A DNA stretch of 6,491 nt, from the IMG/VR virus record IMGVR_UViG_2695420595_000022, positions 1 through 6,491 of that record, one strand, 5' to 3'. A program made the translations under genes and the position numbers. Shown piece after piece: positions 1 through 6,491 of the stretch. Every line of letters begins with the position of its first letter. The stretch's first letter is position 1. Under the pieces are notes generated by a model. The model was given only the letters and a program-made list of their open reading frames with translations. It did no database searches and had not been told where the DNA came from. Origin of the DNA: a virus (lineage: Duplodnaviria > Heunggongvirae > Uroviricota > Caudoviricetes).

Positions 1-1509
1 ATGAAACCATCCATAGAACAACTTCTACATATCTACGGGCCGATGTCCTCATCTGCCTTAAGAGAAAAACTGATAGCCAATGGCCTAACAGAAGTTAACG
101 CCAGACAGCGAATCTCCCGCGTTGGAGGTGATGTTCAACGTTTTACTCATTTTTCTTTGCCCAAAAATGAAGCATTTCTCTATCTGACAAAGGACTATAA
201 CTCTCGTCGATATTGGATTGCATTGCTTGAAAGTCATGTAAATGCAAGAACAGTCTATGCTCACACCTTTTTCGCTTTCCACCCTTATCAAGGGGCGATC
301 CCGACATATCTTTTTAGCAAGGTTTCAGGGAGTCCGGACAAACTGAAGGGACACATTGCGTCAAGCCGTCTTGAAGCGCAATTGCTTAAAGGTTCAGTTC
401 TGCGTAGGGAAGTTGATGTCGTTTTGGGGGATTGTCTTGTTACTTACATAAATAATATTAACGGGGTAACGGATACCCAACATGTCCGAAACCAATTGCT
501 GGTTGAAGATATTCTCATTAAAGGTGTAGCTGACTGGATTAAACACAATAGCCTTGGCAGCTTTAATAAGGTCCAAGTCCGTAACTCTCAGAATATGCCT
601 TCATTTAGCCATCACCATTGGGACATATGTGCTCCGTCATATATTATGCCTTTAGCAACAGTACAAAAAGGTGAAATGAGTAATGGCTTCATTGTTGCAG
701 ATGTCATATACAATGATTTAGATAGCAAAAGCATCCAAACCTATCTCACGAAAGTACAGCGATGCAGAAATATGCGAAATACTCGCCCGTTTCTAGCTAT
801 GCTGATTGCAGAACGTTTTGATCCAGAAGCCTTTCGCCTTGCGAAACAAGCTGGTGTAATGGCTACAACAGTATCTAACCTACTTGGTCAAGACATTTCA
901 GCACTACTGTCCAGTTTATTAAATACTCTTAATCGTGCCAGTGCTATTGCGGCAGCAAACCCAGAAAAAATCAACGAACTATTTAAAGGACTTACGAGGA
1001 TTGAAGGCGCCGCAATCAATATAAGAGGCGTAATGTTTGAAATGTTAGTTGGTCACATCGTACTGAAAACCCAAAATGTCAGCACTGTGGACTTGAATAA
1101 ACAAATCAGTACCGAGGCAGGTAAGGCTGAAATAGATGTGATTGGTTTTAGAGGCGAAGCAGAAATTAAGTGCTACGAATGTAAAGGCTATGAAGTTAAG
1201 CGACTAATTTCAGTCGAAATGATCGAAAAGTGGCTCGAACGAGTTCAACGCATCAGAAAATTCTACAGTCAGATTCATGTGTACCGTGACCGAAAAATGA
1301 CTTTTTCATTCTGGACCTCATCAGATTTTGAACCTGAAGCACTTGAGCTGCTGCTTCATCAGAAGCAAAGAAATACAAAAATATCATTAGACTGGAAAAA
1401 TGGACGTGACATTCTTTCCATTGTTAAGGAAGACAATCTGAAATCAATTGCAGATGTTCTTCAGGAACATTATCTTCGACACCCACTGGCTCCTGATGCA
1501 GATATGTAA
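1..1509 (+). CDS. Hypothetical protein (502 aa); possible N-terminal winged-helix-like region and C-terminal PD-(D/E)xK nuclease-like core; candidate defence cargo
   Basis: Long uninterrupted ORF ending in TAA at 1507-1509; ATG at window position 1, so the true start could lie upstream. C-terminal segment GVMFEMLVGHIVLK...AEIDVIGFRGEAEIKCYECKGYEVKRL has the E / D / E-x-K order and spacing of PD-(D/E)xK nucleases (Mrr-catalytic-like FExLV...IDxI...xCK pattern). N-terminal IEQLLHIYGPMSSSALREKLIANGLTEVNARQRISRV looks helix-turn-helix-like. No Walker A motif and no HNH-type CxxC/His pattern seen. Sampled G+C is low (26/60 at 1-60, 22/60 at 421-480) against 36/60 at 3841-3900. Confidence 0.8.
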   Translation: MKPSIEQLLHIYGPMSSSALREKLIANGLTEVNARQRISRVGGDVQRFTHFSLPKNEAFLYLTKDYNSRRYWIALLESHVNARTVYAHTFFAFHPYQGAIPTYLFSKVSGSPDKLKGHIASSRLEAQLLKGSVLRREVDVVLGDCLVTYINNINGVTDTQHVRNQLLVEDILIKGVADWIKHNSLGSFNKVQVRNSQNMPSFSHHHWDICAPSYIMPLATVQKGEMSNGFIVADVIYNDLDSKSIQTYLTKVQRCRNMRNTRPFLAMLIAERFDPEAFRLAKQAGVMATTVSNLLGQDISALLSSLLNTLNRASAIAAANPEKINELFKGLTRIEGAAINIRGVMFEMLVGHIVLKTQNVSTVDLNKQISTEAGKAEIDVIGFRGEAEIKCYECKGYEVKRLISVEMIEKWLERVQRIRKFYSQIHVYRDRKMTFSFWTSSDFEPEALELLLHQKQRNTKISLDWKNGRDILSIVKEDNLKSIADVLQEHYLRHPLAPDADM

Positions 1510-1738
1510 TGTGGATAAGCCTAAGGTTTATTTAGCTGCCTTTGATGCTGTCTATTACCGAATTGTGATGGTCTGCCCAGTACAAAAATATCATTCTGGG
1601 CGAATTGATTTAGAGGGTTCACCGGCTCTAAGAGAGCCGATATATGGCTAGTGTCTGAGTTCCCAAGAGCTCGACAGTTTGGGCTGTAAAGTTGTGCTGT
1701 CTGCCAGCATCAATCTTTACCGGTGGCCTGCATCATGT

Positions 1739-2293
1739 CTAATCCCTGCCTACAGGAAATTTTCGGTATAGTGTTGACACTCCTACATCATAAATTAATG
1801 CTACGCGCTGACGCGTTTCTCCTGCAGCGATTAGTCTCCCTGCCTGCGCCCACTGCTCATCCGTTAGTTTTGGCTTACGTCCACCAATTCGTCCCTGTGC
1901 GCGAGCAGCTTCCAGTCCAGCTTTTGTTCGTTCAACAATCAGTTCACGCTCCATTTCAGCCAGGGCACCCATCACATGAAAGAAAAAGCGCCCCATTGGG
2001 GTACTAGTATCAATTGAATCCGTCAGACTACGAAAGTTGATGCCTCGTTCGCGCAACTCCTCAACCAGAATGACCAGATGCCGCATACTACGCCCCAGCC
2101 GATCCAGCTTCCAGACAACCAGAGTGTCACCTGCCGATAATGTCCTGAGCAGTTTTTTCAGTCCAGGCCTTTCGGACTTTGTACCGCTTATCTTGTCTTC
2201 AAAAATCAGCTCGCATCCTGCACAGTTCAGCGCATTACGTTGTAGATCTGTGTTCTGGTCATTTGTTGACACACGTACATAGCCAATAAGCAT
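1739..2293 (-). CDS. pin: Serine-recombinase DNA invertase (Pin/Gin/Hin/Cin family)
   Basis: Translation MLIGYVRVSTNDQNTDLQRNAL...LVVWKLDRLGRS...FFFHVMGALAEMERELIVERT...RQRVALIYDVGVSTLYRKF carries the resolvase/invertase catalytic-serine motif (YVRVSTNDQ) and a C-terminal HTH. The ORF track extends to 2329 (MASFLLLSGRST-), but family members start at MLIGYVRVS, so ATG at 2291-2293 is preferred; stop TAG at 1739-1741. Lies immediately beside crossover site A. Confidence 0.95.
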   Translation of the reverse strand: MLIGYVRVSTNDQNTDLQRNALNCAGCELIFEDKISGTKSERPGLKKLLRTLSAGDTLVVWKLDRLGRSMRHLVILVEELRERGINFRSLTDSIDTSTPMGRFFFHVMGALAEMERELIVERTKAGLEAARAQGRIGGRKPKLTDEQWAQAGRLIAAGETRQRVALIYDVGVSTLYRKFPVGRD

Positions 2294-2347
2294 GGTAGAT
2301 CTCCCTGACAAAAGCAGGAATGATGCCATTTGCTCGTTATTTCTGCA

Positions 2348-2373
2348 TTTTCATAAACGTTGGTTTGGGAGAA
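2348..2373. other. Invertase crossover site A (pix/gix/cix-like, pin-proximal type)
   Basis: TTTTCATAAACG-TT-GGTTTGGGAGAA: two imperfect 12-bp inverted half-sites around a 2-bp core, resembling the gix/cix/hix consensus. 2323..2374 is a perfect 52-bp reverse-complement match of 6440..6491, and the GGTTTGGGAGAA half-site is shared with site B. Confidence 0.8.
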
Positions 2374-4215
<1,842 letters not shown>

Positions 4216-4218
4216 TCC

Positions 4219-4962
4219 ATGCATCGTATAGACACGAAAACCGCGCAGAAGGATAAGTTCGGCGCGGGTAAGAACGGTTTTACCCGTGGTAACCCCCAGA
4301 CCGGCACACCTGCCACCGATCTGGATGATGACTACTTTGACATGTTGCAGGAAGAACTCTGCAGCGTGGTGGAGGCATCCGGTGCCAGCCTGGAGAAGGG
4401 GCGGCATGACCAGCTGCTTACCGCGCTTCGTGCGCTGCTGTTAAGCCGCAAGAATCCGTTTGGCGATATCAAATCTGATGGCACGGTGAAAACGGCTCTC
4501 GAAAACCTTGGTTTGGGAGAAGCGGCAAAACGAAATGTGGGCAACGGGGAAAACCAAATCCCTGATATGTCTTTCTGGACGGTTACTGGTGGCAATGGAA
4601 ATTTTGTGATTCGTCAACCTGACGGGCTAATCATTCAGATGGTTACTGTAAGTATAAGCGGTCCAGTGGCGATGAATGGAATGACTGATAATGCTTATGC
4701 CATTACAGGTTCTAATAAGTCTTATATTGCCACAGCCACATTGCCCTTTGTATTTCCTAATAAGGTGCTGGGCGTTATCCCTCTGGTATCAACAACAGCT
4801 TATGGTGGTGTATCCAGTAATATTACAGGTTCATACGCGACGGCGGTTTGTTCTTTTGCCGCTGTCAGGGGGAATAATACGATTGTGTTCAAAGTCGACA
4901 AACCACTGAATGCAGCCTTTCCTTCAGATACCAGCGTCTCAGCGTTAATCATTGGACGGTAA
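4219..4962 (+). CDS. stf: Tail-fibre protein with constant N-terminal part and invertible variable C-terminal part (currently expressed cassette)
   Basis: ATG at 4219 preceded by GGAG (4209-4212). The constant part ends ...[11 protein letters not shown], encoded across site B; the variable part [19 protein letters not shown]...GLIIQMV...LPFVFPNK... resembles tail-fibre receptor-binding tips. Stop TAA at 4960-4962. Confidence 0.85.
4496..4521. other. Invertase crossover site B (constant-side, pixL-type) inside the tail-fibre gene
   Basis: CTCTCGAAAACC-TT-GGTTTGGGAGAA: same architecture and same core (TT) as site A, with an identical GGTTTGGGAGAA half-site, in direct orientation to A and inverted relative to C. 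Confidence 0.8.
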
Positions 4963-4964
4963 GA

Positions 4965-5408
4965 ATGAACTCAGTATTCTTTTCACCCGCAAGTAAAAGT
5001 TTTTATCTGCAAGAATTGTTTCCAGAATATGAGGATGCGGGAACGCTTCCTGATGATGTTATTGAAATTACCAGAGAAACATATGAGCAATTTCTTGGGC
5101 TGCATCCAGAAGGGAAAGAAATTGGCGCTGACAGTTCAGGACGGCCAATATGGATTAATTCCCCGCCGCCTTCAAAAGAGGATGAGATGCTGGCGGCTGA
5201 AATGAAAAAGATATCTTTGGTTTCAGAAGTCAATACCTACATCAATACCCATCAGTGGCCTGGCAAAGCTGCTATTGGTCGTCTGAAAGGTTACGAGCTG
5301 GAACAATATAATTTATGGCTGGATTATCTGGACGCACTGGAACTGGTTGATACCTCCAGTGCTCCAGATATTGAATGGCCTACGCCTCCGGTAGTTCAGG
5401 CCAGATGA
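4965..5408 (+). CDS. tfa: Tail-fibre assembly protein (chaperone for cassette 1)
   Basis: 147-aa ORF starting 2 nt after the stf stop; C-terminus ...SSAPDIEWPTPPVVQAR has the conserved Tfa C-terminal APD(I/V)xWP motif. Confidence 0.85.
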   Translation: MNSVFFSPASKSFYLQELFPEYEDAGTLPDDVIEITRETYEQFLGLHPEGKEIGADSSGRPIWINSPPPSKEDEMLAAEMKKISLVSEVNTYINTHQWPGKAAIGRLKGYELEQYNLWLDYLDALELVDTSSAPDIEWPTPPVVQAR

Positions 5409-5985
5409 CATCCGGCGCGGTGCTGGTATCTGTTGCAGTCACCGCGTCAATGTAATCCAGCACAGCGTTAAGCCGGGTTGTTTCTGCCTGCGTCAGCTTC
5501 CGCCCGGCCTGCAATTTCAGCTGAATCAGACTAATGGAAGCCATAGCAGCATCAATCAGTGACTGGCGCCGTACTTCTGCCGCGTCTACTGCGGCGTTAT
5601 GCTGTGCCTCAGTATCGGTCACCCATTTCTCACCATCCCATTTATCGTATGACGTTAACGGGGCGATAGTGGTTGTATTTTCAGGGTAATCACCCGGAAC
5701 TGTGATTTCTTTTGATTCTCCTGTTTCGGTGCTATAGACGATTTCACCGCGATGGTCTGGCACATATTCCCATGAGTTAAAATCTGCAGAACGGCAAATT
5801 GCATAACCAGCTTTATATGAGCCAGGAGCATCTAAACAGGAACATGCCGGGATACCAACACCCACAGCAAGATATTCAGTTGATGTGGAAATATATTCCC
5901 GTGTTTCACCATCATAATTATAAACGGTAATGTCTCCGGCCTTTGTGGCGATGAGTTCATTATTTAATACAGCTTTACTTATCAT
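5380..5985 (-). CDS. tfa: Tail-fibre assembly protein (chaperone for cassette 2, inverted)
   Basis: 201-aa ORF on the minus strand; C-terminus ...TSTAPDVIWPELPEA matches the Tfa motif. Its ATG (5983-5985) overlaps the TGA stop of the upstream inverted tail-fibre cassette (ATGA coupling). Confidence 0.85.
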   Translation of the reverse strand: MISKAVLNNELIATKAGDITVYNYDGETREYISTSTEYLAVGVGIPACSCLDAPGSYKAGYAICRSADFNSWEYVPDHRGEIVYSTETGESKEITVPGDYPENTTTIAPLTSYDKWDGEKWVTDTEAQHNAAVDAAEVRRQSLIDAAMASISLIQLKLQAGRKLTQAETTRLNAVLDYIDAVTATDTSTAPDVIWPELPEA

Positions 5986-6491
5986 GCAGCCCTCACAATA
6001 TAATTAAAGGCGATGTTACGGGAGCGGGTTTCAGATGCTGTGCGAACTGAGCGAGATGCGTCGAATGTCCAGTTATAAGCGCCATAACCCTCAATAATTT
6101 CGGCTTCCTTTAGACCTGTAGATAATACTTGCCCATGTTGACTAAATGGCCCTGAACTAAGTACGTCTCTAAAAAGCTGGGTACGCCCAAAAGAACCAAC
6201 AATATTCTGAATTGCATCATTCTGTGCAGATAATAAGTTACGACCAGAGTCAATCCCGCGCCCATCATCCCAGCCACGAATAAATTCACCGCGTAAATCT
6301 GGTAATTTTAATGTTGGGTAAGCCTTTGCCAGATTTGGGTACTTTTCAGAAGAAAATACTGCTCCGTTACATTTTAGCCACCCCGTTGGCGGAGTGGCGG
6401 AAGGCCACGGAACAGGCACACCAACGGGTAATGCCGAACCTTCTCCCAAACCAACGTTTATGAAAATGCAGAAATAACGAGCAAATGGCAT
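5982..6491 (-). CDS. stf: Alternative tail-fibre C-terminal variable cassette (silent, inverted orientation)
   Basis: Translation (MPFARYFCIFINVGLGE)GSALPVGVPVPWPSATPPTGWLKCNGAVFSSEKYPNLAKAYPTLKLPDLRGEFIRGWDDGRGIDSGRNLL... is a typical tail-fibre tip of invertible tail-fibre systems. The first ~8 codons, including the ATG at the window edge, lie outside site C; inversion at B x C would fuse the cassette in frame to the constant part at GLGE. Confidence 0.8.
   Translation of the reverse strand: MPFARYFCIFINVGLGEGSALPVGVPVPWPSATPPTGWLKCNGAVFSSEKYPNLAKAYPTLKLPDLRGEFIRGWDDGRGIDSGRNLLSAQNDAIQNIVGSFGRTQLFRDVLSSGPFSQHGQVLSTGLKEAEIIEGYGAYNWTFDASRSVRTASETRSRNIAFNYIVRAA
6441..6466. other. Invertase crossover site C (pin-proximal type, inverted relative to A and B)
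   Basis: TTCTCCCAAACC-AA-CGTTTATGAAAA is the exact reverse complement of site A. Perfect identity extends over 52 bp (6440..6491 vs 2323..2374) and is limited by the window end. Confidence 0.8.

Follow-up and report, generated by a model that had tools for sequence, protein, structure and literature searches.

The 6,491-nucleotide stretch of DNA analysed here (IMG/VR virus record IMGVR_UViG_2695420595_000022, positions 1 to 6,491; hereafter the window) begins with an open reading frame (ORF) at 1-1509 of the plus strand, ATG start and stop codon included, which encodes an uncharacterised nuclease-like protein of 502 amino acids (aa). We propose, with a probability of roughly 55%, that this protein is a stand-alone two-site DNA endonuclease carried on mobile elements and acting in the defence against, or exclusion of, foreign DNA. 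In its AlphaFold2 model the protein is composed of two winged helices (wH) followed by two restriction-endonuclease (REase) folds, in the order wH-wH-REase(non-canonical)-REase(canonical), and the family of ~500-aa proteins that it founds here is itself uncharacterised.

The ORF, singled out in a sequence-only reading of this DNA, is real and complete, and the segment FEMLVGHIVLK...EIDVIGFRGEAEIKCYECKGY is present in its product as quoted. E. coli FT130, which is 99.9% identical to window positions 1-1700, carries an in-frame TGA three codons 5' of the ORF ATG, and homologues match the start residue, so that the ORF is complete at base 1. A word-indexed search recovered 92 full-length relatives with 25-97% identity, and 1.84 billion cluster representatives, searched exhaustively with a profile, yielded 1,252 proteins at E ≤ 1e-3, 556 of them at E ≤ 1e-30, with nearly all matches being ~500 aa long and aligned end to end. 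On the strength of these homologues and representative clusters, the ORF is a real gene rather than a chance reading frame. Its GC content of 40.9%, compared with 49.7% for the remainder of the window, is consistent with foreign cargo.

Directly upstream of window base 1 (positions 11985-12000 of the FT130 locus, L001), the ATG is preceded by no Shine-Dalgarno-like sequence. A palindrome, AGTGT-G-ACACT, ends three bases 5' of the ATG in FT130, with a similar sequence, ACTGTGACA, lying ~130 bp upstream. These palindromes may be operator sites, or else translation of the ORF may be weak or leaderless.

Domain architecture and the two nuclease folds

The AlphaFold2 model, computed from a 54-sequence alignment, is very confident, with a mean predicted local distance difference test (pLDDT) score of 90.2 and a predicted template modelling (pTM) score of 0.85. 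The model comprises, all on the plus strand, winged-helix domain 1 (aa 1-66; window 1-198), winged-helix-like domain 2 (aa 67-152; 199-456), REase-fold domain A (aa 155-292; 463-876), a helical linker between the nuclease folds (aa 293-334; 877-1002), and REase-fold domain B (aa 335-495; 1003-1485). The winged-helix-like N-terminus anticipated from the sequence is therefore present, as two units, but the middle region of ~250 aa, previously said to match nothing, holds a second nuclease fold, domain A, with a conserved non-canonical site. Across 221 family members with ~35% mean pairwise identity, conservation is highest in domain 1 (mean pairwise identity 38%), whose recognition-type helix at aa 31-40 (consensus AARQRISR) retains A34 and R40 in 97% and 99% of members respectively, and domain 2 is more variable (30%). 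Near-invariance of the recognition helix points to a ligand shared across the family rather than to diverse sequences.

Domain B carries a canonical E-D-ExK site, formed by E347 (nucleotides 1039-1041; 95% conserved), D379 (1135-1137; 100%), E393 (1177-1179; 99%), and K395 (1183-1185; 92%, with arginine in a further 7%). The corresponding residues of domain A are E169 (505-507; 96%), D208 (622-624; 96%), D234 (700-702; 100%), and K251 (751-753; 100%), with the +2 position after D234 lacking a lysine (D234-V-I) and K251 lying 17 residues on, in the helix following the D234 strand. The protein thus displays the alpha-beta-beta-beta-alpha-beta core fold of the PD-(D/E)xK superfamily, together with the E...D...(D/E)xK residues in domain B and a variant set in domain A. 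Local profile-profile alignment of domains A and B is weak (E 7e-4, probability 27%), pairing E169 with E347 and D208 with D379, with the subsequent helices also aligned, and no global profile-profile alignment of the two domains was obtained. Because of this, an internal duplication is suggested rather than proven, and the two domain sequences are compatible with such a duplication being ancient.

The C-terminal segment had been read as a PD-(D/E)xK core of the Mrr or Shedu/DUF4263 type. The fold and the residues E347, D379, E393, and K395 uphold the superfamily, but not the type, with the query falling below Mrr_cat and matching no DUF4263 model. Curated families were unmatched by the 502-aa query, with Pfam returning only DUF7300 (E 0.12), NCBIfam only a spurious L23 match, PHROGs no match, and PADLOC only LmuA (E 0.007, aa 368-485). 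No system-specific model of PADLOC-DB v2.0.0 was matched, the matches being at the level of the nuclease domain only. A single-sequence search of the PDB with the query gave only a spurious coiled-coil match, and a search of PDB sequences with the family profile placed Card1 best (E 0.06), aligned exactly on FE / EIDV / ECK. Neither Walker A nor HNH patterns were found in the protein by pattern scan, and, with Pfam also negative, its earlier description as not McrA-like is borne out. A literature search by protein accession found no paper naming the accessions searched.

Individual Pfam scans of 54 diverse relatives point to the same superfamily. Mrr_cat (PF04471), which the query did not match even at E ≤ 10, matched 3 of the 54 (best 2.5e-6), one of them above threshold (28 bits against 21), and NERD (PF08378), likewise unmatched by the query, gave weak matches to 6 of the 54, with the protein of plasmid pGY1 (25 against 22.1) and the relative P0088 (22.4 against 22.1) just above threshold. 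The query itself reached the gathering threshold of neither family. Other weak matches were to DUF4143 (4/54), DUF234 (3/54), Mrr_cat_2, Card1_endonuc, and PDDEXK_11. All of these weak matches belong to the PD-(D/E)xK clan and, where coordinates were checked, fall in the C-terminal third, with just three above curated cut-offs. The closest structural matches are restriction enzymes and NucS, with FokI and N.BspD6I near the top, and the BFVD viral structure library gave single-domain matches only. Profile and structure searches, proposed at the outset as the check on a nuclease assignment, lead to the PD-(D/E)xK clan and restriction-endonuclease folds.

Prophage slot and mobile-element contexts

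The ORF lies outermost among the genes of an E. coli prophage of the e14/Mu-tail type which integrates at ssrA. BLAST detected an ssrA remnant upstream of the ORF in FT130, and scanning this upstream region with Rfam returned no RNA family. It is convergent with a pinE-type serine invertase (1739-2293, minus strand; longest ORF to 2329), which defines a cargo slot. That the position beyond the invertase carries variable cargo, as stated in the sequence-only reading, is confirmed by mcrA occupying the slot in K-12-type e14 and a LEM-3-like GIY-YIG nuclease gene occupying it in the O157 strain 28RC1, and by the presence of a pinE-type invertase in 2,811 of 5,426 complete E. coli genomes, against only 8 for the ORF. 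No corresponding slot was seen in the P2-like prophage inspected. The invertase-adjacent slot is a variable cargo site with recurring nucleases, and the pinE-adjacent end of e14-type prophages emerges as a hotspot of nuclease swapping (McrA, GIY-YIG, and the 502-aa protein).

Seventeen neighbourhoods of family members were inspected one by one, with all 17 located on mobile elements and known defence genes often adjacent. The Morganella copy belongs to a lambdoid prophage, where the tail fibre and the integrase flank it, and a further copy is a prophage-interior moron beside umuDC. A small integrative element that encodes a D5-type primase and AbiEi carries another copy, and island copies lie immediately after an integrase and ahead of methylase, HATPase, and HNH genes, with a large serine recombinase and TacAT, or beside ParA and near a Mrr_cat gene. 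The Myxococcus gene is flanked by insertion sequences (IS), and that of a Tn7-like transposon is directly behind TniQ, with JetC/JetD nearby. In Salmonella the gene is found with ArdC, integrases, and umuDC on a region resembling a plasmid or an integrative and conjugative element (ICE). On ICEs it sits between a type I restriction-modification (R-M) system and ArdA/TraG in Henriciella, and neighbours an OLD-TOPRIM ATPase and a UvrD-like helicase, a Gabija-like pair, in Sphingomonas. Plasmid copies are found in Pantoea and Klebsiella oxytoca, within a cassette (HEPN, hypothetical, homologue, DUF4238, small ORF) on Klebsiella IncF and E. coli W IncI plasmids, and on pGY1, a 3.6-kb ColE1-type plasmid in which the homologue is the sole large ORF. 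By tblastn, homologues are present on 357 plasmids, 193 of them conjugative.

No methyltransferase is conserved beside the family genes in the 17 neighbourhoods. A two-gene system was considered and rejected, with the downstream genes of different homologues being mutually unrelated in pairwise BLASTP (all insignificant). Given these unrelated downstream genes and the lack of a conserved methyltransferase, we regard the family as stand-alone mobile-element cargo.

The homologues of the plasmid cassette (L011, 5466-10005, Klebsiella IncF; L012, 6034-9006, E. coli W IncI) are distant, at ~26% identity, with the DUF4238 gene and small ORF conserved downstream and a HEPN nuclease gene upstream on the Klebsiella plasmid. 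This subfamily may act with partners, unlike the prophage copy. Genes for umuD/umuC occur within a few kb in three unrelated contexts, namely the Pantoea plasmid (L002, 4843-5292), the Salmonella element (L016, 13050-14752), and a prophage (L026, 4847-6546), which may reflect coincidental co-cargo or a link to DNA damage. Outside the window, FT130 encodes a 570-aa OLD/AriA/NsnB-like ABC ATPase (L001, 9128-11154; PADLOC E 4e-31 to 5e-29) which, with a 94-aa ORF, lies upstream of and divergent from the ORF, beyond the att remnant. The ATPase is possibly encoded by a defence gene in its own right, resembling PARIS or Menshen, in which case the locus would form a small defence island.

The rest of the window may be rearranged. 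An IS3-family element in the 2320-3640 region (orfA 3272-3619 and orfB 2406-3152, both minus strand) is broken off within orfB at ~2584/2585 and there adjoins a tail-fibre C-terminal cassette (2320-2584, plus strand). The entire window is not found in any complete E. coli genome; positions 1-2575 are of FT130 type, and positions 2575-6491 are 100% identical to the IS3-ymfQ-fibre arrangement of CP180607 and CP182220. In the IMG/VR contig L027 both flanks are 100% identical, with 304 bp (one N included) in place of the 86 bp of the window (2585-2670). The junction of the IS3 element and tail-fibre cassette may reflect either a genuine rearrangement mediated by the IS or a join made in assembly. 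On the plus strand at 3604-6491 (compared with 14355-17043 of L001), ymfQ, the tail-fibre gene, and tfa point away from pinE, whereas their strand relative to pinE is reversed in FT130 and K-12 e14. The crossover-site-encoding motif N-x-GLGE is present in three copies, at ~2370 (plus), ~4530 (plus), and ~6440 (minus), which, together with the gene orientation, suggests that the tail-fibre switch region has undergone a larger inversion or rearrangement.

Proposed mechanism and alternative explanations

As an accessory cargo product, the protein would act as a stand-alone, nucleoside triphosphate-independent endonuclease, with its two N-terminal winged helices binding nucleic acid, most likely double-stranded DNA, and each of the tandem nuclease domains supplying a putative active site (E169/D208/D234 with K251, and E347/D379/E393-x-K395). 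Cleavage would be Mg2+-dependent, with the two different sites allowing one molecule to cut both strands. Because no methyltransferase accompanies the enzyme, host DNA must escape cleavage in some other way, most likely through the enzyme sensing a feature of incoming DNA, be it a modification or a structure, rather than host methylation. We prefer this explanation since McrA, a type IV enzyme, shares the slot and the recognition helix is near-invariant. The enzyme would serve to defend against, or to exclude, phages or competing mobile DNA. More tentatively, the family of at least 1,250 clusters might constitute an unnamed single-gene immune system, in which a methylase-less two-site monomer uses its winged helices to read not a sequence but a general hallmark of incoming DNA, either hypermodification or an intermediate of a structural or replicative kind.

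Several points weigh against a two-site DNA endonuclease acting in defence. The defence role is proposed through guilt by association, and PADLOC contains no model of the family as a system, which is consequently unseen by any defence screen represented there. No copy of the ORF was found in deposited phage genomes by tblastn, and a single pattern scan of IMG/VR recovered only 2 loci. The highly conserved recognition helix, judged from the family alignment, argues against diverse sequence specificities, and both winged helices and NERD-like nucleases can, by analogy with ZwsA (preprint), also act on RNA. E169, D208, D234, and K251 are conserved positions, with their assembly into a pocket, and the facing of both sites onto one duplex, presumed. 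Domain A could also be a regulatory or dimerisation module.

In keeping with this last point, domain A may be a degenerate, non-catalytic duplicate serving in DNA or ligand binding or in oligomerisation, with double-strand cleavage achieved by dimerisation of a protein with one active site, as in FokI. The absence of the canonical +2 lysine from domain A, its weak profile alignment with domain B, and the appearance of FokI and N.BspD6I among the top structural matches are in favour of this arrangement, which we consider possible though doubtful. The residues of domain A are, however, at least as strictly conserved as those of the canonical site (D234 and K251 at 100%, E169 and D208 at 96%), and a basic residue moved to the next helix is documented in active sites (Mva1269I, PD-Xn-E-X12-QR; PMC3017599). 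Cleavage of RNA is a further alternative. Some family members exceed the Pfam NERD cut-off, and the catalytic residues E535/D567/E580/K582 of ZwsA, a stand-alone NERD-domain RNA endonuclease which blocks RNA phages, are spaced almost as E347/D379/E393/K395; yet the E-D-ExK spacing is widespread in the superfamily, ZwsA (compared by description only) is an 82.4-kDa protein with other accessory domains (VHS, DUF647, S4), and DNA is indicated both by the paired winged helices and by restriction enzymes and NucS being the nearest matches in structure. An RNA-targeting nuclease is very unlikely.

The protein might also be an abortive-infection or toxin-type effector, in which a nuclease auto-inhibited by, for example, the winged helices or domain A is freed by a phage cue to degrade host and phage DNA indiscriminately. 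The sequence-only reading had offered a type IV restriction-like or abortive-infection effector, and the putative DNA-binding module, the nuclease folds, and the lack of a methylase agree with the restriction-like part of this proposal. An abortive-infection effector appears improbable, with no recognisable sensor domain (CARF, SAVED, STAND), no signal-making partner gene, and a likeness which extends to the generic nuclease fold only. Alternatively, the nuclease could serve the mobile element itself, through plasmid or ICE addiction, exclusion of rival plasmids, or a NucS- or resolvase-like function in structure-specific repair or recombination that aids establishment of the element. The genes occupy cargo rather than core positions, and their carriers (phage, Tn7-like, ICE, plasmid) are unrelated, so that no single element-specific process fits. 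The likeness to NucS is moreover limited to the minimal nuclease fold, with no PCNA/clamp-binding or dimerisation domain, and such a selfish or housekeeping role is, in our view, unlikely.

If the proposed DNA endonuclease is confirmed, the 502-aa protein would provide a compact, transferable module for defence or exclusion that needs only one gene. The module is common on plasmids of the clinically important Klebsiella, E. coli, and Salmonella, and likewise on prophages, Tn7-like transposons, and ICEs, and could thereby affect phage therapy outcomes and plasmid traffic. A methylase-independent monomer with one canonical and one non-canonical site would also be a natural system in which to study the discrimination of self from non-self DNA without host modification, and a potential scaffold for strand-specific nickases.

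Comparison with known systems

The protein is a predicted restriction-like stand-alone nuclease made of familiar parts in an undescribed four-domain arrangement. Its modelled architecture most resembles the class II type IIS enzymes Mva1269I, BsmI, BsrI, and BtsCI, which act as monomers and combine a non-canonical site (PD-Xn-E-X12-QR) towards the N-terminus with a canonical PD-(D/E)XK site towards the C-terminus, each strand being cut by a different site (PMC3017599; PMC11889245). As in these enzymes, an N-terminal DNA-binding region appears to precede two PD-(D/E)xK-type domains, the first non-canonical with a displaced basic residue, and the predicted folds and conserved site residues indicate two nuclease catalytic domains in one polypeptide. 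Unlike these enzymes, the 502-aa protein has no adjacent cognate methylase, and in the 17 neighbourhoods it resembles type IV restriction in being a nuclease without a cognate methyltransferase. It shares with McrA the position beyond pinE at the prophage end and the character of a single-gene, methylase-less nuclease, but McrA is an HNH enzyme of 277 aa, and the 502-aa protein has no HNH motif, Pfam match, or similarity to it. Relative to the Mrr-type/AF1548-type nucleases (Mrr_cat PF04471; PDB 1y88) and the Mrr-like type IV enzymes of E. coli, the 502-aa protein carries one additional winged helix and a further nuclease-fold domain.

Among other candidates, Shedu (SduA) was ruled out by the lack of a DUF4263/SduA model match and by N-terminal parts which are winged helices, and Lamassu LmuA by a match restricted to the nuclease segment (E 0.007) with no conserved SMC-like (LmuB) neighbour. 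The END nucleases (PLD with inactive EndoIII) and the wH-fusion readers of N6-methyladenine (6mA) were rejected as families on account of their different nuclease or sensor domains. Enzymes of the latter kind reading Dam-GATC (6mA) have been described (PMC11037411). In E. coli, dependence on Dam would make such an enzyme toxic, and a Dam-6mA reader is unlikely because the hosts are Dam+ enterobacteria. The CARF/SAVED nucleases (Card1, Can2, Cdn1, Cap4) differ in that the 502-aa protein has no CARF/SAVED sensor but has N-terminal winged helices and a second nuclease fold. NERD proteins, including ZwsA, are likewise stand-alone multidomain nucleases with a similarly spaced E-D-ExK, and some family members are annotated as NERD by the Prokaryotic Genome Annotation Pipeline (PGAP); ZwsA is set apart, by description, in being larger, in having VHS/DUF647/S4 domains, and in cleaving RNA. 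The two-wH, two-REase arrangement would, if true, form a new architectural class beside the Mrr, McrA, GmrSD, Shedu, and END nucleases.
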